A stretch of 64,000 bases of DNA from NCBI GenBank assembly GCA_964436855.1, contig CAYTED010000006.1, positions 19,681-83,680 on the forward strand. The letters are read 5' to 3'. Below the pieces are notes generated by a model that was not told the origin of the DNA, did not search any database, and saw only the letters and a list, made by a program, of their open reading frames with translations. The stretch comes from an uncultured Bdellovibrionales bacterium. Lineage in GTDB: Bacteria > Patescibacteriota > Minisyncoccia > Moranbacterales > UBA1568. Below, one piece after another: positions 4,030-15,600 of the stretch. The position numbers and the translations under genes were made by a program. Positions within the stretch are counted from its first letter, which is position 1. Each line of letters starts with the position of its first letter.

Positions 4030-4200
4030 AAAAGAGACAAGAAGCTGTCTTAAATGGTAAAATGATACAAGGGTCGTCCCATGTCTCATTTGTCTCGTTT
4101 TATCCTCAAAACCGCGACCCGAGAGCCTCAATTCACTCGTCGGCCAAGACCTCCAAGAAATCCCTCAACGGCTTGATTTCTCAAAGTTCTAGACCGATGA
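4030..4200. repeat. conserved recombinase 3'-flank repeat, copy 1 (candidate att/recombination site with multiple TGTCTCA/TGAGACA subsites)
   Basis: About 93% identical over ~143 bp to 13719-13860. Contains five 7-8-bp TGTCTCA/TGAGACA motifs in direct and inverted orientation and a GGGTCG..CGACCC stem. Abuts the recombinase stop codon. Confidence 0.7.
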
Positions 4201-5706
4201 CGCCCGCCAAAATTCGGAATCAGAAGAAACGGACAAAGCGGGGTCGCGCCGAAGGCGCGACACTAATGCATTCCCCCCGCCGAATCCAGAATCCAAAAGG
4301 GTTTTCCACGCTCCGCGTGGCTCAAAAAGTACGGTTCGATCCTTAATTTGAAAGTTCGAACCGACTTTTTTGAACAAATGAAGATTTTCTTCATTTGTTC
4401 CCTCGTTTGTCAATTCCATACTGGATTTTATGAATCTATCAGCAAGTTCGAACCGATTATGAGATTTTTTCTCAAAAGATGATAATTTCTCTTTGAGAAG
4501 CTGTTTTTGACACATCAGCTTGTTTTTAGAATCACGATATTCGTCTAGCGAAAGTGCGTTCTCTAGGTAAGCACTCATCAGCTTCTCAATTTTGGAATCC
4601 AAAAGAGAAATTTCATCTTTTGTTTTTTGAGAAAAAATCTCACTCGATTGGACTTCTGATTGCCGATCTTTCTCGTTTTCGGCAATCATCCAGTTTGCCC
4701 AATCGAGTGGCAAAGAAACTTTTTGTACTTCCGTTCTGATTTGAGAAGTTATGATTTCCTCGCGAACATATTTTTGTTCACAAGGATTTTTCCGTTTAGT
4801 ACAGCGGAGATAGTTATGACCTTTCTGTGTTTCGGTAGTAATGAAGTAACCACATTCTCCGCAACGGAAAAATCCTCTGTATAGATAATATTTCAAACCT
4901 TTTCCCTTCGGCTTACTTTTCCTCATCATCACTTCTTGAACGGAATCAAAAAGTTTCTTTGTGATAATCGGTTCATGCTTACCCTCAAAAATCTCTCCGT
5001 TATATCGCATTAGTCCTGTGTAGATAGGATTTTTGAGGATTTGCTGATAGTTCGACACCGCAAGTTCCTTTCCGCTTTTTCGCCTCAATCCAAGTCCGTT
5101 AAATTTATCTCGGATTTGATGCAAAGTGAACGACCCTGTTGCGTATGCCTCAAATGTTTTTTTGATAAGCGGAGCTATCTCTTTGTCGGGAACAATGCCT
5201 TGTCCTTTTACATTCACATATCCAAGTGGAGACATTTGAGGCCATATACCTTCTTTCACTTTGTTGCGATGACCTCGTTTGATATTTTCCGACAAATTGT
5301 CCACATAATACTTAGATTGCGAAAAAGCGATTGAAAGCATGAATTTGCCTTGCGGTGTCGGATCACACCAGAAAGTTGGAAATTTTAGCTCGGCAATCTT
5401 TCCCGTATCGAGCAAATAGATAATTTTTCCACCATCAACAGAATTTCTCGCTAATCTGTCGGGATGCCAAGCTAAAATTCCATTTGCTTCACCTTGCTCG
5501 ATACGGAGAAGCATTTCATTAAATACTGGCCGACCTGGGACTTTGGCGGTTTGTTTTTCTACGAAAATATCAACAACCTCGATTTGCTCTTTCAACGCGA
5601 GTTCTTTGAGTTCAGCCAGTTGATCTGAAATACTTCTCACTTGCCGATCTTCGGTGTCGGTTGATTTCCTTGTGTAGATGAAAAACTTTCTGGTGTGATT
5701 ATTCAT
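4189..5706 (-). CDS. large serine recombinase (resolvase/integrase family)
   Basis: N-terminal resolvase catalytic motif (FIYTRKSTDTEDRQVRSISDQ, catalytic Ser), recombinase domain and C-terminal zinc ribbon (CGECGYF...CTKRK), 505 aa. Confidence 0.9.
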   Translation of the reverse strand: MNNHTRKFFIYTRKSTDTEDRQVRSISDQLAELKELALKEQIEVVDIFVEKQTAKVPGRPVFNEMLLRIEQGEANGILAWHPDRLARNSVDGGKIIYLLDTGKIAELKFPTFWCDPTPQGKFMLSIAFSQSKYYVDNLSENIKRGHRNKVKEGIWPQMSPLGYVNVKGQGIVPDKEIAPLIKKTFEAYATGSFTLHQIRDKFNGLGLRRKSGKELAVSNYQQILKNPIYTGLMRYNGEIFEGKHEPIITKKLFDSVQEVMMRKSKPKGKGLKYYLYRGFFRCGECGYFITTETQKGHNYLRCTKRKNPCEQKYVREEIITSQIRTEVQKVSLPLDWANWMIAENEKDRQSEVQSSEIFSQKTKDEISLLDSKIEKLMSAYLENALSLDEYRDSKNKLMCQKQLLKEKLSSFEKKSHNRFELADRFIKSSMELTNEGTNEENLHLFKKVGSNFQIKDRTVLFEPRGAWKTLLDSGFGGGNALVSRLRRDPALSVSSDSEFWRASSV

Positions 5707-5929
5707 AGAATTGTATTGGCAAACGAGGAGCCACGCGGAGCGTGGCGAATCCTTGCAGAATCAGGATTTTGTGGGGGGAATACAGAGCAGACGGCGCCTC
5801 GCGCCGACCGCATTTTTGCTTCGGAATCCGATTTCCAATTTTGGCGGTGTTTGTTGGACAAAGTTCGAATGTATTTCGAGCAGAATCCCGAAGACTAATC
5901 GCGCCTCGTCCGCTCCCTTCGGTCGCGGT

Positions 5930-6074: not shown

Positions 6075-6104
6075 TTGAGCCAAAACACAATAGCGTGATA
6101 TAAT
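6075..6104 (+). promoter_or_regulatory. sigma70-like promoter upstream of the ydeI-xre-broN operon
   Basis: TTGAGC, 18-bp spacer, TATAAT, ending ~30 bp upstream of the ATG at 6133. The palindrome ACACTTGTGT lies just upstream. Confidence 0.45.
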
Positions 6105-6132: not shown

Positions 6133-6432
6133 ATGGCGAAACAAGTAACACAAAAAATACCGCATACTTTACCTAAGGACATGCGAGACGTACTCACCAC
6201 TCACTCCGATGTTAAAGCAAAGTGGGATACTCTCACTTCACTTGCTCAAAATGAGTGGATTTGTTGGGTGACTATTGTGAAGAAAAAAGAAACTCGGAAT
6301 GAGCATCTTGCTCGGTTTGTTCAGGATTTACAAAAAGGAAAAAGAAGACCATGTTGTTGGCCAGGATGTCCGCATCGCAGACCAAGTGCACAAAAGTGGT
6401 TTAGTAGCAAAACAAGGTTAGTAAATAAATAA
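6133..6432 (+). CDS. YdeI/OmpD-associated (OmdA) family protein
   Basis: 99 aa with AKKPETR-like core (VKKKETRNEHLARFVQDLQKGKRRPCCWPGCPHR) typical of the YdeI/OmdA family. Assignment is from memory. Confidence 0.5.
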   Translation: MAKQVTQKIPHTLPKDMRDVLTTHSDVKAKWDTLTSLAQNEWICWVTIVKKKETRNEHLARFVQDLQKGKRRPCCWPGCPHRRPSAQKWFSSKTRLVNK

Positions 6433-6433
6433 T

Positions 6434-6643
6434 ATGGCAAAAACCACAGCACAAAAATTTGGCGAAAATATGAAAAAGATTCGGCTCGAAAAAGGTATGT
6501 CGCAAGGCGACATTTGCCGAGAGTTAGGATTAGATCGAGCATATATTAGCAATGTCGAGAACGGCAAACAAAATCTTACAATTAGCACAATGGAAAAGGT
6601 CGCCACAGTGCTTGGGGTTAGCGTAGATCAACTTTTAAAATAA
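6434..6643 (+). CDS. XRE-family helix-turn-helix transcriptional regulator
   Basis: 69 aa with HTH_3 pattern (GMSQGDICRELGLDRAYISNVENGKQNLTISTMEKVATVLGVSVDQLL). Starts 1 nt after the upstream gene. Confidence 0.85.
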   Translation: MAKTTAQKFGENMKKIRLEKGMSQGDICRELGLDRAYISNVENGKQNLTISTMEKVATVLGVSVDQLLK

Positions 6644-6645
6644 CT

Positions 6646-7500
6646 ATGACGACACAAAATCAAACCATTACCAAAATCGCTATTTTTCAGAAAAAGGAAG
6701 TTCGCAAGATTCTCTATAAAAATGAGTGGTGGTTTTCTGTAATTGATGTTATTGAGGTTTTAACAGATACAGCACGCCCACGAAAATATTGGAGCGACCT
6801 CAAGAAGAAACTAATAAAAGAGGGTTATTCTGAAGTGTCCGAAAATATCGGACAGTTGAAAATGACCTCTCCTGACGGCAAAAAGCGAGAAACTGACTGC
6901 GCGAATACCGAAACAATTTTTCGCATTATCCAAGCTATACCATCACCAAAAGCAGAGCCGTTCAAGCGTTGGTTGGCGCGGGTTGGTTATGAGCGAATTG
7001 AAGAAATAGAAAATCCGGAACTTGCCACAAAACGCACGCGTGCGTTATACAGGGCAAAAGGATATTCAGATGCTTGGATTGAAAAACGAATGCGTGGTAT
7101 TGAAGTACGCGAGACACTTACGGACGAATGGAAAAAACGTGGAGTAAAAGAAGGGCAGGAATATGCAATTCTCACAGCGGAAATCTCAAGAGCAACATTT
7201 GGTATGACACCGAGTCAATACCAAAAACTCAAAGGTTTGAAGCGGGAAAATTTGCGCGACCACATGAATGACCTCGAGCTTATTTTTACAATGCTCGGCG
7301 AAGCCTCAACTACCGAAATCGCTCGCAACAAAAACACCCAAGGATTTTTGGAAAATAAAATTGCTGCGAAAGAAGGAGGAGATATAGCTGGTGAAGCACG
7401 CCGAAAACTTGAAATAAAGAGTGGTAAAAAAGTTTCTACTGGTGAAAATTATTTACCAGAGCCAAAGTCGAATCGCAAGTTAAAGCCAAAAAATACATGA
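6646..7500 (+). CDS. Bro-N domain protein (DinD/phage antirepressor-like)
   Basis: N-terminal Bro-N pattern (ITKIAIFQKKEVRKILYKNEWWFSVIDVIEVL...KYWSDLKKKL), 284 aa. Typical cargo of phages and integrative elements. Confidence 0.8.
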   Translation: MTTQNQTITKIAIFQKKEVRKILYKNEWWFSVIDVIEVLTDTARPRKYWSDLKKKLIKEGYSEVSENIGQLKMTSPDGKKRETDCANTETIFRIIQAIPSPKAEPFKRWLARVGYERIEEIENPELATKRTRALYRAKGYSDAWIEKRMRGIEVRETLTDEWKKRGVKEGQEYAILTAEISRATFGMTPSQYQKLKGLKRENLRDHMNDLELIFTMLGEASTTEIARNKNTQGFLENKIAAKEGGDIAGEARRKLEIKSGKKVSTGENYLPEPKSNRKLKPKNT

Positions 7501-7964
7501 AACTGACATTCGATGAAAACTTGATAGCGGACTACACCAGTGCTTCTCAAAAGGTCAGAGTTTTAAGCGAGAATTTGGTCTTAAAGGAAATATATTGCCC
7601 TAATTGCGGTGAGTCTATTTTTGAATATCAAAACAATAAACCCGTTGCCGATTTTTACTGCTCAAAATGTTCAGAGGATTTCGAACTCAAGTCAAAGCAA
7701 GGAAAATTTGGCAAAAAAGTTTCCGCTGGCGCATATTCCAAAATGATAGAAAGAATCAATTCTGCACAAAAGCCGAATTTCTTCTTCATGGGATATCTGC
7801 TAGAACTTTTGAATGTTAATGACTTCTTTGTTGTTCCAAAACATTTCTTTGTATCTGAAATTATCGAAAAGCGAAAACCATTATCCGAAACTGCTCGTCG
7901 AGCGGGTTGGGTCGGTTCAAATATTCTCTTTTCAAAAATACCGAAGGCAGGGCAAATCTTTTGA
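7497..7964 (+). CDS. DpnI-like (Dam-replacing family, type IIM methyl-directed) restriction endonuclease catalytic domain, lacking the C-terminal winged-helix domain
   Basis: Strong resemblance to the DpnI N-terminal region: YCPNCG...NKPVADFYCSKCSEDFELKSKQG, PNFFFMGY, RKPLSETARRAGWVGSNI (recalled from memory). The ORF stops after ..SKIPKAGQIF; DpnI continues for ~80 aa more. Overlaps the bro-N stop by 4 nt. Confidence 0.6.
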   Translation: MKLTFDENLIADYTSASQKVRVLSENLVLKEIYCPNCGESIFEYQNNKPVADFYCSKCSEDFELKSKQGKFGKKVSAGAYSKMIERINSAQKPNFFFMGYLLELLNVNDFFVVPKHFFVSEIIEKRKPLSETARRAGWVGSNILFSKIPKAGQIF

Positions 7965-8019
7965 TGAAAGCCTGAAGCAACTTGGTAAAGTCCTTGGATT
8001 TGAGGCTTCAAGACCTGAA

Positions 8020-8421
8020 ATGAATGGGGATGGAACTTTAGACGTATGCTGGGAAGATGAGGAAAGGAAAGTTGTTATAGGGTTTGAAAATAAAATTGAA
8101 AAGACTAATAAGATTCTATCTAAACAAGAAATAGACCAGTGTTCTGGACACGGAAACTGGCTCTCACAAAACTACCCTGACTATGAGCGCATCATGTTTG
8201 TTGTTGGTCGAATTGATGGCTATAACGAATTAGCGTCTCCTCTTGATCTAAATATTTTGGAAGTAACAGAAATTGAGAGAGTGTCAGGTGAGATTAAACA
8301 GGTACATGGGAAAAAGGTTTACCCTGAGCAAGTGGACGCATCTCTTGACTCTCAAAAACTAAGGGCTAGTAGTATCTTTCCTCAAGTTAAAGTTTCGTCT
8401 TTACCGAAGATAAAGTGCTGA
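8020..8421 (+). CDS. hypothetical protein (possible replacement C-terminal module for the DpnI-like nuclease; start uncertain)
   Basis: The ORF at 7813-8421 overlaps the DpnI-like gene in another frame; the first in-frame ATG after that gene's stop is at 8020 (MNGDGTLDVCWEDEERK...). No recognisable motif. Confidence 0.35.
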   Translation: MNGDGTLDVCWEDEERKVVIGFENKIEKTNKILSKQEIDQCSGHGNWLSQNYPDYERIMFVVGRIDGYNELASPLDLNILEVTEIERVSGEIKQVHGKKVYPEQVDASLDSQKLRASSIFPQVKVSSLPKIKC

Positions 8422-8431
8422 TTTCAAGTTC

Positions 8432-9523
8432 GTGATTGAATACTATAAATATCTCAAAGGCCATTCCTACTACTCCAACCTCTACGACCGCATCACCATA
8501 GAGGAATGCCAGCGTTGGGAAAATAAGGAATATCCTAAATCGCTTAAGGAGACCGATGAGGAGGCAAAGCTTACAAAAGTAAAAGAAGAGTATTTTCATA
8601 AAGTGGTTATCCGGCTTGCCATATACTTTCTCACCGCTGACCGTGCTGCAAAAAAATCTGAAACCATTCAGGAATGGATGAAGCGAGACCAAGAAAAGGA
8701 TGAGCGAGTGGCTAATGCTGAAGAGCCGCGGGGTATCCGTTGTCTTGGTTGCAGTTCGCTTTTAACGAATTGCATTTCTCGAGATCTCATGGATAACCAC
8801 CAAGGACAAGAAGCGGTTCTTTTCATGTTCGAATGTGGAAAATGTCACAAACGCCGAGCCTTTTGGGAGAATGGCAAGGAGTGGGAGCATAAGCCGAAGT
8901 GCATACAGTGCCGATCGGAAGTGGTATCAGAGAATACAAGAGAAGGCGATATTATCACCACTCGATACTCCTGCTCTCATTGTGGCAATGTAGAGGTGGA
9001 CACTATGGATCTGAACAAGAAAGAAGAAGAGGTTGATCCTCACTTTGAGGCGAATCGAAAGAAATATTGTATTTCAGAACTAGAGGGCAAAGAGATCATT
9101 CGTGAATCTCAGGAGATGAAAGAGCTTGTCGATAGCTGGAGAGAAAGGGATGAAAAGAAAGAGTTATACGAAGACATAGCTAAGATCCAGAAACTAACCT
9201 TGGTTGAGCTCCAAACCCTTGTTACCCCGGTCATAGAGAAGGCGGGGTATACCAAGCTTGAGTTTGAGAAGCCTACCTTAGAGAAGGATGTGATCCTCGG
9301 ATTCAGTCTCCAAGATGCTCAATCTGGCCGAGTAGAGTACGATAGCGTCCATAATCTCCAGAAGCTCCTGAAAAAGACCCTTGAGCCAACAAATTGGCGC
9401 CTAATGAGCGAAGGGGTCAGTTATCGCCTTGGATTCCTCCAAGGGCGTTTAAAGGGTGTGGAAGGCGAGGAAAAGCTTAAGCAGCTTCTAGAAACAGAGA
9501 GAAAAAAGAAATCTAGAGAGTAG
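8432..9523 (+). CDS. hypothetical protein with two CxxC...CxxC zinc-ribbon-like modules
   Basis: 363 aa with CLGC, CGKC, CIQC and CSHC pairs in the central region and a charged coiled-coil-like C-terminus. Confidence 0.5.
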   Translation: MIEYYKYLKGHSYYSNLYDRITIEECQRWENKEYPKSLKETDEEAKLTKVKEEYFHKVVIRLAIYFLTADRAAKKSETIQEWMKRDQEKDERVANAEEPRGIRCLGCSSLLTNCISRDLMDNHQGQEAVLFMFECGKCHKRRAFWENGKEWEHKPKCIQCRSEVVSENTREGDIITTRYSCSHCGNVEVDTMDLNKKEEEVDPHFEANRKKYCISELEGKEIIRESQEMKELVDSWRERDEKKELYEDIAKIQKLTLVELQTLVTPVIEKAGYTKLEFEKPTLEKDVILGFSLQDAQSGRVEYDSVHNLQKLLKKTLEPTNWRLMSEGVSYRLGFLQGRLKGVEGEEKLKQLLETERKKKSRE

Positions 9524-9548
9524 AAAATAATCCGGTTTTGCGATTGAT

Positions 9549-10433
9549 ATGAATCCAGAAAACGTGTCGGTTACGTTTTCCATAGTTGTGGCAAATAACA
9601 CCCACAGAAATCATACTAAGTTTTCTGAAGAGTGGAATTTTTCTATTGATCGTTATACCTTCACTCGAATAAGCAAGGATGAAGTAAGAGTTTCCTTTAC
9701 TTTTGATGCTGTTCTAAAGAAATATGATGAGGATTATCGACTCGTTGATGAATGTCCCTCAGAGTATCTCCCCGAATATCAGGAATGCGAGGAAGAAATC
9801 GAAGTTATATTAGATTTACTGTCTCTGGAAGTTGGGGCGGGATTACAGATAAAAGAGGAAAGTTTTCTTTTTGCCTCAGCCACCTGTAGAAATAACGAGT
9901 TTAAGAATAGTCGCTTCATAGTGCCTTCAAAAACAAGGGATATCTATCCTCAATTTGAAATAGAAGATAATAGAAAGCTAGGGCTAGCTCTTCGTCTGTA
10001 TCGGCAGTCGGTGTCTACGAATGATCCTCGGGAACAAATGGTGAAGCTTTTTGCTGCTCTTGAACAACTATTTTCTAATGAAGGGAAGCGAATGTTGACC
10101 AAAGAAGAGATTGACCAGGTTAGAGGAGCTGTGGAGGCCTTGTCTCTTTCGCCAGAAAAAAAGAAGATTATCCTTGATAGAGTTTGTGACATCAGAAAAA
10201 GCTCGAAAACAATGATTGCGGAGAATCTTGAGTTAATGAGCGGTGACGAGCTGATTTCTGAAGAAGAGCGAAAGCAGCTGGTTGGGACTTGGAATAAATA
10301 TAGGTCAGTGATAGCGCATGGGGAGCTTATTTCAAGAAGAGACATGGATTTTGATTATGCTGTTTCTGAAATTGATACGATTGTCGAAGCAATCTTGAAA
10401 AGAAGCATAGAACACAGGATGCGAGAGTCTTAA
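9549..10433 (+). CDS. hypothetical protein
   Basis: 294-aa ORF with a plausible context (26 nt after the upstream stop); no recognisable domain. Confidence 0.45.
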   Translation: MNPENVSVTFSIVVANNTHRNHTKFSEEWNFSIDRYTFTRISKDEVRVSFTFDAVLKKYDEDYRLVDECPSEYLPEYQECEEEIEVILDLLSLEVGAGLQIKEESFLFASATCRNNEFKNSRFIVPSKTRDIYPQFEIEDNRKLGLALRLYRQSVSTNDPREQMVKLFAALEQLFSNEGKRMLTKEEIDQVRGAVEALSLSPEKKKIILDRVCDIRKSSKTMIAENLELMSGDELISEEERKQLVGTWNKYRSVIAHGELISRRDMDFDYAVSEIDTIVEAILKRSIEHRMRES

Positions 10434-10500: not shown

Positions 10501-12525
10501 TCACTTCTTCGAATACCTCGAGTAATACGCGCAGACCTCGGTGTTCGGGTCACCAACCGGAGTGCTCCCGTCCTGTTTGAGGCAGGCCCGGATAGTATGC
10601 CACTGGAGCTTCCAAGCGCTGCTCGAGGGAATCGGCCAGCCGTTACCTTCCATATAGTCCTCGTCGGTGCCGCCGGGAGGCAGTTCCGAGGGATGGATGA
10701 CGCCGTAGCCGATGTTCCACCATGCTCCGCCCGTCGCTACCGGACTCGAGATATGGTAGAGGACGGTGACATCGGTGGCGGGAGCGACCGGACCGTCGTT
10801 TCGCACCCAGATATCGGGCTTGATACGGCTTCCCGTGTTGGTGGTACAGCAGCCGACCTCATCCTGGAACTTGGTGATGACAAGCTTGGGCGCCGGTCTC
10901 GGTTGAAGAACGAAGGAGAGGCTCGTGCAGTTGTTCGTCTCGTCCGATTCGGATACCGCTCCTTGGTAGTCGGCACAGAAGTACGCCGTGCAGGCACCGG
11001 TAACGTTCGGGAGAGTGACAGACCCGATGTTTTCCTCGAACGCGGATGCACCAGCGGAAAGCGTGCTCGCCATGGTTCCGTCATCGGCCAGATAGATGAG
11101 ACTGGTACCGGGGCACTGGACGCTGTAGCTGCTGCGGATATCCGCTGGAGAACCGATATTGCCTTGGTTGGTTACCCAAGCGCCGAACCGAGCCTGATCC
11201 CCTGCATAGTACGGAGCCTGCCGGAACTGGAGGCCGCTTGTCACGAAATCGACGAAGCGCGGATCCTGGTTCTCGATCGGATTGGCCGTCACCTCGAAGA
11301 CCGCTTCGGTACTGCAGTTGTTGCTTTCGTGTTTTTCCTGATGGTCACCTCCGTTGTTGTGATCGTCCCGGGGATGATCGATGCAGTAGACGATGTTGTA
11401 GATGCCCGGTTCCGTGATCCACTGACTGATGACCGTGTTTTTGGTCTCGGTATGGGTGTCACCCGGCTTCAGGTTATCGCACTGCGTCGTCGTACTGTCG
11501 ATCCTCTGCCATGCTCCGTCTCCGCTGTGAACATCCTCCTTGTACCCCTTGGAGAGGTAGAAGTGGCCGGTGATGGTACTGATCTCGCCGCTGACACACT
11601 GGCCGTCGCCGATATTCTCGGACTGGGCTTTGGTATCGAAGGACTCGTTCAGGCCGAACTTGTATATCTCATCGCCCCACGGAGTGACGAGCCAAGTCTT
11701 CCGGACGATGAAGTCGGGAAGATTCGGATTCGGAGCGTCGGCCGCTTCGGTAAGATAACCGGCGCCGGCACCATGCACCGCGAGCGTCGCGTTGCCAGCC
11801 ACTACCGTTCCCGTATAGACATTGATGGTATTGACCGTACCGAACGACTGTATTTCAGCGGCACTCGCTACCTTTCCGAAGAAATTGACGATCGCACGCC
11901 ACCATTTCCGCCACCCATGATCCTCGGGGATTCTTTCCTGGGGATTGGGAGCGCTCGTGATGTAGGTCAGGTTGGATTGCAACTCACCACATACACTTGC
12001 ACCTTCTATCTGGGCATACGGTGGGTTGACGATACGATACCAAGACGTCGCCGTCTCGCAGGAAGCTGTCTTCGGCTCCCAGCAGATGTCGCCCTGACAC
12101 ATAGTCTGCGCTTCAGTTGAGGGATTGTAGGCGTAGTGGGTTTGGATGAAGGCAATTGGGTCAATGAAAGTATTAGTACACTGACTGTTTCCATCGCAAG
12201 GATTGGTCCAGAATGAATTATTCATTCTTCCCCAGCCCTTACCACCACCAGTTGGTGGAATACTATCCCCAATACACGCCGAAATGCAGGTGAGCACCAT
12301 TGGCACTGCCATTCCATATGCCGGTTTTCCCAATTGGTTTTCCGGCATAGACATCGTTACCGGCCGGAAGGGTTCCGCTTGAAAGATGGCCGTATAGCGC
12401 GGTAAACACCTGCCCATCATGCGTCTTATGCTTGATGAACAAAGCACAGTTTCCAGGACCCCATGAGGCATCATCGCAATGGCGTTTGTAGATCGTGCCG
12501 TCCGCAATAGCGTAGACTTTGGCAT
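10501..12525 (-). CDS. large secreted Cys/Trp/Gly/Asn-rich protein domain; N-terminal part of this ORF overlaps the M23 peptidase gene in another frame
   Basis: 674-aa ORF in GC-rich DNA with >30 Cys and many Trp and no recognisable domain. Its first ~85 codons overlap the 12263-12745 ORF, so the true product probably begins at the frameshift point near 12262. Confidence 0.5.
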   Translation of the reverse strand: MPKSTLLRTARSTNAIAMMPHGVLETVLCSSSIRRMMGRCLPRYTAIFQAEPFRPVTMSMPENQLGKPAYGMAVPMVLTCISACIGDSIPPTGGGKGWGRMNNSFWTNPCDGNSQCTNTFIDPIAFIQTHYAYNPSTEAQTMCQGDICWEPKTASCETATSWYRIVNPPYAQIEGASVCGELQSNLTYITSAPNPQERIPEDHGWRKWWRAIVNFFGKVASAAEIQSFGTVNTINVYTGTVVAGNATLAVHGAGAGYLTEAADAPNPNLPDFIVRKTWLVTPWGDEIYKFGLNESFDTKAQSENIGDGQCVSGEISTITGHFYLSKGYKEDVHSGDGAWQRIDSTTTQCDNLKPGDTHTETKNTVISQWITEPGIYNIVYCIDHPRDDHNNGGDHQEKHESNNCSTEAVFEVTANPIENQDPRFVDFVTSGLQFRQAPYYAGDQARFGAWVTNQGNIGSPADIRSSYSVQCPGTSLIYLADDGTMASTLSAGASAFEENIGSVTLPNVTGACTAYFCADYQGAVSESDETNNCTSLSFVLQPRPAPKLVITKFQDEVGCCTTNTGSRIKPDIWVRNDGPVAPATDVTVLYHISSPVATGGAWWNIGYGVIHPSELPPGGTDEDYMEGNGWPIPSSSAWKLQWHTIRACLKQDGSTPVGDPNTEVCAYYSRYSKK

Positions 12526-13689: not shown

Positions 13690-13860
13690 GTATGAGACAT
13701 ATAACTGTCTCAGTATGCTAAAATGAGACAAGGGTCGTCTCGTGTCTCATTTGTCTCATTTTATCCCTGAAACCGCGACCCGAGAGCCTCAATTCACTCG
13801 TCGGTCAAGACTTCCAAGAAATCCCTCAACAGCTTGATTTCTCAAAGTTCTAGACCGATG
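13690..13860. repeat. conserved recombinase 3'-flank repeat, copy 2
   Basis: See copy 1. Includes the perfect 12-bp inverted repeat aaaatgagacaa/ttgtctcatttt around gggtcgtctcgtgtctcat and five TGAGACA/TGTCTCA motifs. Confidence 0.7.
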
Positions 13861-14164
13861 TAGCCCGCAGATAGGAACAAGGCAGGTTTTCGGAAACGCC
13901 AAGGAAGGGGCTCTTGGCTTGAACGCGCAATACTTTGTCCGTCAGTGTGAGGTTCGAACTGATGGCACGCATGATCTGCTTCTTGCATCGACTGTCACCG
14001 GTCTCGTAGCGAAAGAGGGCTTGTTTGCGGAACGAATCGAGTGTGTTCTCGAATTCGAACCGATCCGGACGATCTTCTAAGAGTTCTGAAATTTGAGATT
14101 CAATAGACATAATCTGTCTATCCTCACTCTCGGTAGATTTTCTGGTGTAGATAAAGTATTTCAT
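13850..14164 (-). pseudogene. serine recombinase remnant (internally deleted: N-terminal ~35 aa joined to C-terminal ~65 aa)
   Basis: MKYFIYTRKSTESEDRQIMSIESQ matches the catalytic N-terminus of the 4189-5706 recombinase. The C-terminal part (RFEFEN...LRATSV) matches that recombinase's C-terminus (RFELAD...WRASSV). Only 104 aa. Confidence 0.7.
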
Positions 14165-14195: not shown

Positions 14196-14260
14196 CTGAA
14201 TTCAAAACGGCTTGAATTTTCGGCGAAAAACGGCTGGCGAGCCCGCGTAGCGGGCGAGCC
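14196..14260. repeat. 65-bp inverted repeat, left copy (IR-L), abutting the XRE start codon
   Basis: ctgaattcaaaacggcttgaattttcggcgaaaaacggctggcgagcccgcgtagcgggcgagcc is the reverse complement of 15345-15409 with one mismatch. Contains the inner hairpin GCCCGC-GTA-GCGGGC. Confidence 0.8.
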
Positions 14261-14467
14261 ATGGCAACTGAAAACAACATTGGCGAAAATATAAAGAAAC
14301 ACCGCACAAGATTAGGGCTTTCGCAAGAAAATTTTGCCCAAAAGTCTGGTGTGAAGTATACGACTCTTACAAAGATTGAAAGCGGGGTTATTCAAAAGCC
14401 ATCTGTCGTTTTGGTGGCAAAAATTGCTAAAGTCCTCGGTGTTTCTATTGAGGATTTATTGAAATAA
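14261..14467 (+). CDS. XRE-family helix-turn-helix transcriptional regulator (paralog of 6434-6643)
   Basis: 68 aa with HTH_3 pattern (LGLSQENFAQKSGVKYTTLTKIESGVIQKPSVVLVAKIAKVLGVSIEDLLK). Confidence 0.85.
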   Translation: MATENNIGENIKKHRTRLGLSQENFAQKSGVKYTTLTKIESGVIQKPSVVLVAKIAKVLGVSIEDLLK

Positions 14468-14468
14468 T

Positions 14469-15185
14469 ATGGAAGAAAAAGAACAACCTAAAAATTTAGA
14501 ATATCGGGATTACATTGAAGGCACGCGTAAAGTGCTTGAACAAAGCAAGACTGAAACAGGACCATATGAAGTAACTGTTTCGGGGAAAAAATTTATTGTT
14601 TTTCCAAATGTTTTTTCTCCGAAATACTTTAACGATACGGAATTATTTGCAGACAACTTTCCGGTCCAAGATGGAGAGGAGATGTTAGAAATAGGTCCTG
14701 GAACGGGTGCCATTTCGATTCTCGCTATTTATAAAGGTGCTGGAAAAGTTTTGGCGATAGATATAAATCCCGATGCAGTAAAAAACACACAGGCCAATAT
14801 CAAACTTCACAATTTGCAAGAAAAGGTTGAAGTTCGGCAAGGTAACTTATATGAGTCCCTTAAATCCGATGAGAAATTTGATACGATATTTTGGAACACG
14901 CCGTTTGGATTTATTGAAGACGAGGATGTGCCAGACCTAGAAAAAGCGGTCTATGATCCTGCATACAAATCAACCGAGAAGTTTATCAGAGAGGCAAAAC
15001 AGCACTTGAAAAAAGGAGGGCGAGTTTTGGTAGGTTTCAGTACGACTTTGGGTAGATTGGATTTGCTTCAAAAATTTGCCGAAGAAGCAGGATTATCTCT
15101 ACGTCTAATTTATGAGGTAGAATCAAAGGAGACACATCCTGTTAAGTTCGAAATTTTTGAAGCCTTACCGATTGAGTCAGAATGA
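14469..15185 (+). CDS. class I SAM-dependent methyltransferase (small-domain/HemK-RsmC-like; substrate unknown)
   Basis: SAM-binding motif I LEIGPGTGAISI, an acidic residue after beta2 (AIDIN) and an NPPY-like motif IV as NTPFGF. Starts 1 nt after xre. Confidence 0.75.
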   Translation: MEEKEQPKNLEYRDYIEGTRKVLEQSKTETGPYEVTVSGKKFIVFPNVFSPKYFNDTELFADNFPVQDGEEMLEIGPGTGAISILAIYKGAGKVLAIDINPDAVKNTQANIKLHNLQEKVEVRQGNLYESLKSDEKFDTIFWNTPFGFIEDEDVPDLEKAVYDPAYKSTEKFIREAKQHLKKGGRVLVGFSTTLGRLDLLQKFAEEAGLSLRLIYEVESKETHPVKFEIFEALPIESE

Positions 15186-15280: not shown

Positions 15281-15344
15281 GAGCCCAGAGAGTTCCGTTC
15301 GGATATTTTCAAACAGACACCGCCAGTTAGGAAATGAAGTCATT

Positions 15345-15409
15345 GGCTCGCCCGCTACGCGGGCTCGCCAGCCGTTTTTCGCCGAAAATTCAAGCCTTTT
15401 TGAATTCAG
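15345..15409. repeat. 65-bp inverted repeat, right copy (IR-R)
   Basis: Reverse complement of 14196-14260 with 1 mismatch. Confidence 0.8.
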
Positions 15410-15463
15410 CATAAAGTTCGAGCCGACATTTTTAAGAAATGCGCGGATTTGCGTTTTGTCGCC

Positions 15464-15600
15464 CTACGACAAAAGAATTTTGGCTTGGCTACTCAATAAA
15501 ATCACTTCTCGCATCGGTTCGAGCCAATTATTTCCTTTTTGTTCAAAAGCCGATAATTTCTCTTTGAGAATGGGTGCTCTTTTCGTGCCTTGAGAAAAAG
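15464..15600 (-). pseudogene. third serine recombinase fragment (C-terminal end only)
   Basis: Minus-strand translation LKEKLSAFEQKGNNWLEPMREVILLSSQAKILLS* is homologous to LKEKLSSFEKKSHNRFELADRFIKSSMELTN of the intact recombinase. The DNA shares gataatttctctttgagaa with 4484-4502. Truncated by the alkD-like gene. Confidence 0.5.

Follow-up and report, generated by a model that had tools for sequence, protein, structure and literature searches.

The locus and its mobile-element setting

The window, by which we mean the whole 64-kb stretch of DNA analysed, carries seven ORFs on the forward strand between positions 6133 and 10433, all found where an earlier, sequence-only reading had placed them. 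That reading proposed a tightly packed cargo operon holding a DpnI-like nuclease with a swapped recognition module. The packing is as described at the first three junctions (a 1-nt gap, a 2-nt gap and a 4-nt overlap), but the later gaps measure 55, 10 and 25 nt. Pfam upholds the names given to the first three products: an OmdA/YdeI-like small protein of 99 aa (6133-6432; PF13376, E 8.3e-14), an XRE-family HTH regulator of 69 aa (6434-6643; PF01381, E 2.3e-16) and an intact Bro-N protein of 284 aa (6646-7500; PF02498, E 2e-13; PADLOC PDC-S13, E 1e-121). DpnI homologues have Bro-N as a conserved partner upstream; a 283-aa orthologue overlaps the DpnI gene by 4 nt in loci L001-L008, and the DpnI-type ORF of the window (7497-7964) overlaps its Bro-N gene by the same 4 nt. 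The promoter that had been suggested, TTGAGC-18-TATAAT with a TG extended -10, is present at 6075-6104 on the forward strand and is the best promoter-like site of the region, as judged by consensus matches only (10/12), and the number of such sites is not in excess of that in shuffled sequence (9 versus 8.2 +/- 2.9). The OmdA-like, XRE, Bro-N, zinc-ribbon and MauJ-like genes are probably still expressed from this candidate promoter.

The surroundings support the proposal that a mobile element carries these genes as cargo. Divergent from the operon lies an intact large serine recombinase of 505 aa (4189-5706, reverse strand; Pfam Resolvase, Recombinase and Zn_ribbon_recom), whose 90% cluster contains recombinases of the candidate phyla radiation (CPR, ultra-small Patescibacteria). 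A repeat search found two att-like direct repeats of about 160 nt with 92% identity, at 4045-4207 and 13705-13868, which bracket 9.66 kb. The first copy overlaps the final codons of the recombinase gene and is conserved in L015 and L019; the repeat contains an imperfect palindrome and has no match in Rfam. The recombinase domains and the flanking repeats fit a serine-recombinase integrative element, and the Bro-N/DpnI cassette recurs in other contexts. At 13853-14164 on the reverse strand we found an internally deleted serine-recombinase remnant, a 104-aa ORF that has lost its middle and shares 66% identity with the intact recombinase over the N-terminal 29 aa, and tblastn revealed further recombinase debris in the same island; this remnant is a second case of deletional decay there. 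The methyltransferase at 14469-15185, previously considered a neighbour of the operon, does not belong with it: it is of the MTS/HemK type, lies past the second repeat copy and sits in a distinct cassette between inverted repeats.

Fragments of a DpnI-type and an Hna-like nuclease gene

The ORF at 7497-7964 (forward strand) is the surviving 5' part of a gene for a DpnI-type methyl-directed endonuclease and holds codons 1-155 of about 255, as seen with Pfam, PADLOC, PDB, the 90% cluster and DNA alignment. The Pfam HMM search that had been advised as a check gave a DpnI assignment (PF06044, E 2.7e-64), alongside PADLOC mREase_II (E 4e-61) and R.DpnI of Streptococcus pneumoniae (PDB 4esj, E 8e-48). 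The active site of R.DpnI is of the PD-(D/E)XK kind (E25, D53, E64, K66) and is accompanied by a Cys4 zinc site, within a catalytic domain that spans residues 1-182 (PMC3424567). In the 4esj alignment, the ORF keeps the corresponding E25, D52, E63 and K65 and the zinc-site cysteines C33, C36, C55 and C58. It covers only positions 1-157 of 183 in PF06044 and residues 4-158 of 257 in 4esj, and has no Pfam match to the winged-helix domain PF17726. The description of a catalytic domain lacking its winged helix was therefore correct as to what is missing downstream, but the ORF stops before the domain boundary, and since it ends at DpnI residue 158, some 25 residues of the catalytic domain are gone as well. 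Compared with R.DpnI (type IIM/IIE; 4ESJ/4KYW; PF06044 plus PF17726), the window copy is thus alike over residues 1-158, keeping the active site and the Cys4 site, and lacks both a complete catalytic domain and the winged helix. The pneumococcal DpnI gene sits in a dpnC/dpnD cassette, unlike the intact CPR copies, where DpnI lies between Bro-N and an N6/N4 methyltransferase.

The nearest relatives of the ORF are ordinary enzymes. In its 90%-identity cluster of 18 members, all 12 other members that were aligned are DpnI homologues of CPR bacteria, 248-255 aa long, with PF06044 and PF17726; one more entry, P0014, is 152 aa long, lies on a contig of 1,490 bp and was presumably cut by the contig end, so that the cluster reveals no family of DpnI-only proteins of about 155 aa. 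The sequence-only reading had advised looking in homologous loci for a single fused ORF, and what these carry is full-length DpnI, not DpnI fused to the ORF that follows in the window. At the DNA level, homology (78%) to eight contigs with an intact Bro-N/DpnI/methyltransferase cassette begins at 6651 and ends at 7962 (blastn and alignment), breaking off at codon 155, within the catalytic domain. A frameshift that merely split a full-length DpnI gene, which had been named as a way in which the proposal could fail, does not explain this either, as tblastn with the full-length homologue P0003 recovered residues 1-155 and found residues 156-255, with the winged helix, nowhere in the 64-kb window. 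The fragment has four private substitutions, not more than equally divergent full-length relatives; one of them, W27L, replaces the conserved Trp27 of the DNA-contacting N-terminal helix. With all catalytic and zinc residues kept and no excess of private substitutions, the piece itself bears no positive mark of decay, a point against that reading. The ORF is a recent truncation of an ordinary DpnI gene and not a domain-swapped enzyme.

The next ORF, annotated at 8020-8421 and regarded earlier as an unknown protein that might supply specificity, begins at an internal Met of a longer coding remnant (7960-8421, forward strand), which is the 3' end of an Hna-like SF2 helicase-nuclease gene (PADLOC PDC-S28). 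Its frame is +1 relative to that of DpnI, and it encodes the last 154 residues of a protein of about 812 aa. The translation of 7957-8418 matches PDC-S28 only at positions 686-837 of 846, and the relatives are SF2 helicases of 812-850 aa to which the tail aligns only over their last 150 or so residues; the top full-length relative, P0039, has ResIII/DEAD and Helicase_C_2 domains and matches the Hna chain (E 5.7e-46). Structure prediction, also advised for this region, gave an AF2 model with a pLDDT of 92 whose best PDB fold by Foldseek is Hna (9yhn, E 1.3e-5, TM 0.73), with an alpha-beta-beta-beta-alpha-beta core and the invariant residues D29, E44 and K46 (D...ExK). Hna, an anti-phage protein of Sinorhizobium meliloti (9YHN/9YKJ), consists of an N-terminal SF2 helicase and a C-terminal PD-(D/E)XK nuclease (PMC13381803). 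The modelled tail shares the fold and motif of that nuclease domain, which appears structurally complete in the AF2 model, but here it stands alone, without its gating helicase, and a tblastn search of the window with P0039 found residues 655-810 alone and nothing of residues 1-654. The ORF at 8020-8421 does not qualify as a DNA-binding partner of the DpnI core.

The junction and its right flank

The two remnants meet at a recombination junction at 7958-7962, placed by blastn end points and alignments. DpnI homology stops at 7962 and Hna-like homology begins at 7960, with a microhomology common to both sides (TTT, or CTTTT against L024); this overlap of 3-5 nt fits illegitimate recombination. 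One codon past the join, the DpnI frame runs into a TGA at 7962-7964. Contigs from two other sequencing runs, SRR12229868 and SRR30303843, reproduce the junction with 100% identity over 1,968 and 1,421 nt, so that it is no assembly artefact. Only these identical copies carry the DpnI/Hna-tail join: no diverged copy of the junction was found, and the proteins most closely related to each half are ordinary, separate and full-length. Nor did we find an ancestral locus with intact DpnI and Hna-like genes side by side, so that deletion in situ and joining between elements are both compatible with the data.

To the right of the junction, the order of genes is that of L024, where only 6 nt separate a full-length Hna-like gene from a downstream homologue (37% identical, E 2e-79) of the zinc-ribbon protein of the window; the right flank is thus syntenic. 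That protein (8432-9523, forward strand; 363 aa) is intact and does contain the double zinc ribbon noted before, with four CxxC pairs; it belongs to a CPR-wide family of unknown function with more than 270 homologues of about 360 aa. The last gene (9549-10433, forward strand) encodes an intact MauJ-like protein of 294 aa (PF17419, E 1.6e-6) from a small CPR family with 14 homologues of about 300 aa, which adjoins AbiEii in L019/L020. Both families occur in varied mobile-element contexts in CPR, elsewhere without DpnI. The idea that a recognition module was swapped in from these downstream ORFs is contradicted by the full-length DpnI relatives, by homology that ends mid-domain and by the identity of the next ORF as the tail of Hna. 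Such a module would be unneeded anyway, since the catalytic domain of R.DpnI reads Gm6ATC by itself (PMC3424567, PMC4117772).

Probable gene decay and the alternatives to it

Taken together, the locus is very probably an ordinary decayed defence island, carried by a serine-recombinase integrative element in the genome of an uncultured CPR bacterium, in which the broken front of a DpnI gene has been joined out of frame to the broken tail of an Hna-type gene. It is gene decay and no new defence design, and both genes are of known kinds. The ancestral cassette would have held Bro-N and a DpnI-type methyl-directed endonuclease, together with the N6/N4 DNA methyltransferase of intact copies, and would have been severed at DpnI codon 155 by microhomology-mediated illegitimate recombination, either as a deletion or as a join between elements. 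Its new partner would have been the final 154 codons of a gene of the Hna type, with the zinc-ribbon gene following it. Through the out-of-frame join the DpnI reading stops one codon on, and the Hna tail persists only as an ORF from an internal Met. The losses comprise some 25 residues at the end of the DpnI catalytic domain, its winged helix, the methyltransferase and the Hna helicase in full. We infer that both pieces are non-functional remnants; the intact catalytic and zinc residues of the DpnI piece, the in vitro activity of the isolated R.DpnI domain and the complete fold of the modelled Hna nuclease domain speak against this. Remnants left by deletional decay of defence islands in integrative elements are alike in their abrupt breakpoints, microhomology and out-of-frame fragments, and also in a neighbouring deleted recombinase and tandem att-like repeats; nothing notable differs. 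The m6A-dependent type IV winged-helix fusion endonucleases (PMC11037411), in which a winged-helix methyl sensor is joined to varied nuclease domains, are a real route for reshuffling DpnI-like modules and match the earlier idea. Here, unlike in those fusions, the sensor is the missing part, with neither a replacement nor an in-frame fusion.

Three other readings deserve attention. A misjoin in a metagenome-assembled genome would be in keeping with a contig from an uncultured organism and with a junction at a short repeat, the typical place for such errors; with separately assembled contigs from two other runs matching exactly across the join, and a 3-5-nt repeat too short to mislead an assembler, we give this almost no credence. 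It is unlikely, too, that the 155-aa ORF works as a minimal methyl-directed endonuclease, alone or with small neighbouring proteins. On its own, the catalytic domain of R.DpnI (residues 1-182) shows Gm6ATC-specific activity in vitro (PMC3424567), the retained 155 residues take in the active site as well as the regions that contact DNA (16-31, 75-80 and 123-144; PMC4117772), and the 4-nt overlap keeps the ORF translationally coupled to Bro-N. The piece is, however, shorter than the domain that was assayed, of which even the full version expressed poorly, and it has lost Trp27 from a DNA-contacting helix; its aligned relatives are all full-length apart from P0014, its suggested partner is an Hna fragment, and the zinc-ribbon and MauJ-like genes are found elsewhere without DpnI.

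The remaining reading, a functional chimera of about 308 aa that joins DpnI residues 1-155 to the Hna nuclease domain, is very improbable. It would require either a true run of three Ts or +1 slippage at U UUU UGA, in which tRNA-Phe, held up by a slow stop codon, re-pairs from UUU 7959-61 to UUU 7960-62. Deleting a single T, or slipping by +1 at 7959-7964, does give ...GQIF-DESLKQLG..., exactly the Hna-like frame; a P-site UUU is followed by an in-frame UGA, with a fourth U that permits re-pairing as at prfB-type sites, a purine-rich GGCAGGG lies upstream, and both halves keep their PD-(D/E)XK motifs. Yet TTTT is read in three assemblies (the window, L013 and L014), and the T-run is fully accounted for by the recombination microhomology. 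The G-rich tract lies 6 nt from the shift codon, unlike the stimulator of the prfB (RF2) site at about 3 nt. The conservation expected of a used frameshift site is also wanting, given a junction without diverged copies and halves whose relatives are all separate full-length proteins. Moreover, such a protein would have neither the final strand and helix of the DpnI domain nor the helicase controlling Hna (PMC13381803). That the junction is alive at all, as a minimal 155-aa Gm6ATC nuclease or as a slippage-dependent two-nuclease chimera with an ungated Hna domain, has in our view only a slim chance of being true; if such a truncated or frameshift-fused nuclease were active, it would illustrate, in a modest way, how a new effector can arise from gene debris through a recombination accident.

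In conclusion, decay of two known genes remains our reading of the locus, and 7497-7964 and 8020-8421 are best annotated as pseudogene fragments. The lesson is that where a nuclease seems to lack a domain and lies near small unknown ORFs, it should first be compared with its nearest full-length relatives. Beyond annotation, the significance of the finding is slight; it illustrates the turnover of defence islands in CPR mobile elements, where one microhomology join would have destroyed a cassette of Bro-N, DpnI and methyltransferase genes together with a gene of the Hna type.

The gene array and its DpnI-family member

All seven ORFs proposed by the sequence-only reading were found, each on the forward strand. 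Pfam bore out the first three identities, an OmdA/YdeI-like protein (6133-6432), an XRE helix-turn-helix (HTH) protein (6434-6643) and a Bro-N protein (6646-7500), and placed ORF 7497-7964 (155 aa) in the DpnI family with an E value of 2.7e-64, in keeping with the motifs noted in it. These are followed by ORF 8020-8421 (a longer ORF in the same frame begins at 7813), a double zinc-ribbon ORF (8432-9523) and a MauJ-like ORF (9549-10433). The tight packing described for this array holds for the first three junctions (1-nt gap, 2-nt gap and 4-nt overlap) but not for the last three, where the gaps are 55, 10 and 25 nt. The proposed promoter, TTGAGC-18-TATAAT, is present at 6075-6104, carries a TG extended -10 and is the best promoter-like site of a region in which the count of such sites is not above that of shuffled sequence. 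NCBIfam searches over all ORFs gave nothing useful for the last four. A genetic code in which UGA is a sense codon was rejected, because table 11 yields long intact ORFs throughout.

The DpnI piece aligns with R.DpnI (PDB 4esj, E 8e-48) and, in this alignment, conserves the catalytic Glu, the PD Asp, the ExK motif and all four Cys that bind zinc. It covers positions 1-157 of 183 in the Pfam profile and 1-156 of 256 in the PADLOC mREase_II profile, and its PDB match spans chain residues 4-158 of 257. Domain limits were taken from published R.DpnI boundaries (catalytic domain 1-182, winged helix 183-254; PMC3424567, PMC4117772) and not from our AF2 model of a full-length homologue from the candidate phyla radiation (CPR), in which the alignment was shallow, pLDDT was 52 overall and the catalytic domain was poor. 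Since the published catalytic domain is 1-182, the piece ends about 25 residues inside this domain, and not at its boundary. The exact 155-aa sequence sits in an 18-member 90%-identity cluster, of which 12 other aligned members are 248-255 aa long and come from CPR metagenome-assembled genomes (Kaiser-, Peregrini-, Levy- and Moranbacteria). The assignment of the window itself to CPR/Patescibacteria comes from the naming of cluster mates. Full-length members continue past ...KAGQIF with YIENGKEL... and then the winged helix; another member, P0014, has 152 aa and comes from a contig of 1,490 bp. In nucleotide comparisons, a 78% match of the window to eight other contigs (L001-L008) begins at 6651, where Bro-N starts, and breaks off abruptly at 7962, and tblastn found no trace of DpnI residues 156-255 in the 64 kb. 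Private substitutions, counted as a possible sign of decay, number 4 in the piece against 0-4 in full-length relatives, with no overall excess. The profile coverage, the cluster and the end of the DNA match show that the DpnI ORF has been truncated.

Genes in the eight contigs, all of which bear one of these full-length proteins, run in common from an integrase (rve) through Bro-N (283 aa), DpnI (255 aa, PF06044 and PF17726, 4-nt overlap with Bro-N) and an N6_N4 DNA methyltransferase to a variable ATPase or helicase. The methyltransferase lies directly 3' of the intact CPR DpnI homologues, overlapping them in some contigs (e.g. L001 8001-9768), an unusual pairing with a methyl-directed endonuclease. 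PDC-S13, a phage-defence candidate of PADLOC, is matched by the full length of the window's Bro-N protein (6646-7500; E 1e-121). Translational coupling of Bro-N to DpnI homologues in all related loci suggests that the two form a conserved two-gene unit.

The Hna-like remnant and the junction

ORF 8020-8421 had been taken as a separate ORF that could supply specificity or regulation; our searches instead identify it as the tail of an Hna-like gene. The anti-phage protein Hna combines a helicase of the SF2 type at its N-terminus with a PD-(D/E)XK nuclease at its C-terminus (PMC13381803). The translation of 7957-8418 matches PADLOC PDC-S28 at positions 686-837 of 846 only. An exhaustive HMMER search returned 167 relatives, the full-length ones (812-850 aa, with ResIII/DEAD and Helicase_C_2 domains) being matched at their last ~150 residues. 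The best, P0039 (812 aa), is 61% identical over residues 657-810 and itself matches the solved Hna chain (E 5.7e-46). The AlphaFold model of the fragment (7960-8421; pLDDT 91.9) has an alpha-beta-beta-beta-alpha-beta core and, among PDB structures, is closest to 9yhn, the Hna monomer (E 1.3e-5, TM 0.73), and D29, E44 and K46 are invariant among the relatives. From these tail-only matches, the Hna fold and the invariant D/E/K, it follows that ORF 8020-8421 is an internal-Met ORF within the nuclease-domain remnant of an Hna-like gene. By tblastn, Hna-like residues 1-654 left no trace in the 64 kb. Among shorter relatives (350-560 aa), no natural fusion of this nuclease domain to a DpnI-like N-terminus was found; these have no Pfam match or helicase C-terminal pieces only, and DpnI in none. 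The sequence-only reading was largely right as a description, but its proposal of a swapped recognition module is without support: the full-length DpnI relatives and the Hna-tail identity go against it.

Homology to DpnI runs as far as 7962 and that to Hna-like genes starts at 7960, the bases common to both being TTT, or CTTTT in comparison with contig L024. The Hna frame is +1 relative to that of DpnI, so the DpnI frame runs into the TGA at 7962-7964, which closes it. Such an overlap with a frame change is the trace that a microhomology-mediated illegitimate join leaves. On the right flank there is synteny with L024, where a zinc-ribbon homologue (37% identical, E 2e-79) lies 6 nt after a full-length Hna-like gene. 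In L012, which carries the closest homologue of the fragment, the downstream gene is unrelated to the zinc-ribbon ORF. An assembler artefact was rejected, because contigs of two other sequencing runs, SRR12229868 and SRR30303843, are 100% identical to the window across the junction.

Possible activity of the pieces and their downstream neighbours

[quoted passage not shown] However, the domain assayed was longer than this piece, and the conserved Trp27 is Leu here. It could also be proposed that +1 slippage at U UUU UGA, or one T fewer, produces an in-frame DpnI(1-155)::Hna-nuclease fusion; we consider this improbable, because TTTT is present in all three assemblies and the junction has no diverged copy.

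The zinc-ribbon family, which has no Pfam domain and is restricted to CPR bacteria, counts >270 full-length homologues of ~360 aa. The preceding genes vary (DUF8370, a DUF2726 neighbourhood, FtsK/SpoIIIE, an HHH protein), and the homologues recur 3' of varied defence-like or DNA-handling genes, including Hna-like ones (window, L015, L021, L024, L025, L026). In L021, the 133-aa gene adjoining the homologue is unrelated to ORF 8020-8421. The MauJ-like ORF has 14 homologues of ~300 aa, and AbiEii adjoins this gene in contigs L019 and L020. Neither family is linked to DpnI in other loci, and we take the zinc-ribbon gene to be one commonly carried by mobile elements and no partner of DpnI.

The mobile island

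An intact large serine recombinase is encoded at 4189-5706 on the reverse strand (Pfam). A ~160-nt direct repeat, which overlaps its last codons, has copies at 4045-4207 and 13705-13868, which lie 9.66 kb from each other and are 91-92% identical. It is also found in other CPR contigs (L015 13866-14028, L019 9460-9610) at similar identity, although gene identity there is no more than ~70-77%. Within the repeat is an imperfect palindrome (AAAATGAGACA ... TGTCTCRTTTT), and the repeat may be the att/recombinase site of the element family. We read it as att-like and not as an RNA: Rfam, searched at gathering threshold with the whole window and at E<=1 with the repeat, returned only four tRNAs and chance-level matches, and RNAalifold on four copies recovered the palindrome with no covariation.

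An internally deleted recombinase of 104 aa (13853-14164, reverse strand; its first 29 aa share 66% identity with the intact recombinase) and two C-terminal fragments, at 5728-5850 (forward) and 15362-15571 (reverse), indicate tandem or nested integrations followed by deletions. Nearby, 66-nt inverted repeats (14196-14261 and 15344-15409, 98% complementary) bracket an XRE HTH gene (14261-14467) and an MTS/HemK-type methyltransferase (14469-15185; PADLOC mad2-like, E 1e-25), and this two-gene segment has the look of a small cassette that is invertible or mobile. At 10501-12525 (reverse strand), a 674-aa ORF that includes a CARDB domain lies in a stretch of 51-57% GC, against 39-42% in its neighbours, with a 545-aa ORF open on the opposite strand; this is probably foreign DNA within the island.

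The intact recombinase, the repeats and the recombinase debris thus mark the island as an accretion of integrative elements in deletional decay. The DpnI piece and the Hna-like fragment that it carries are ordinary remnants of genes from two defence families already known.
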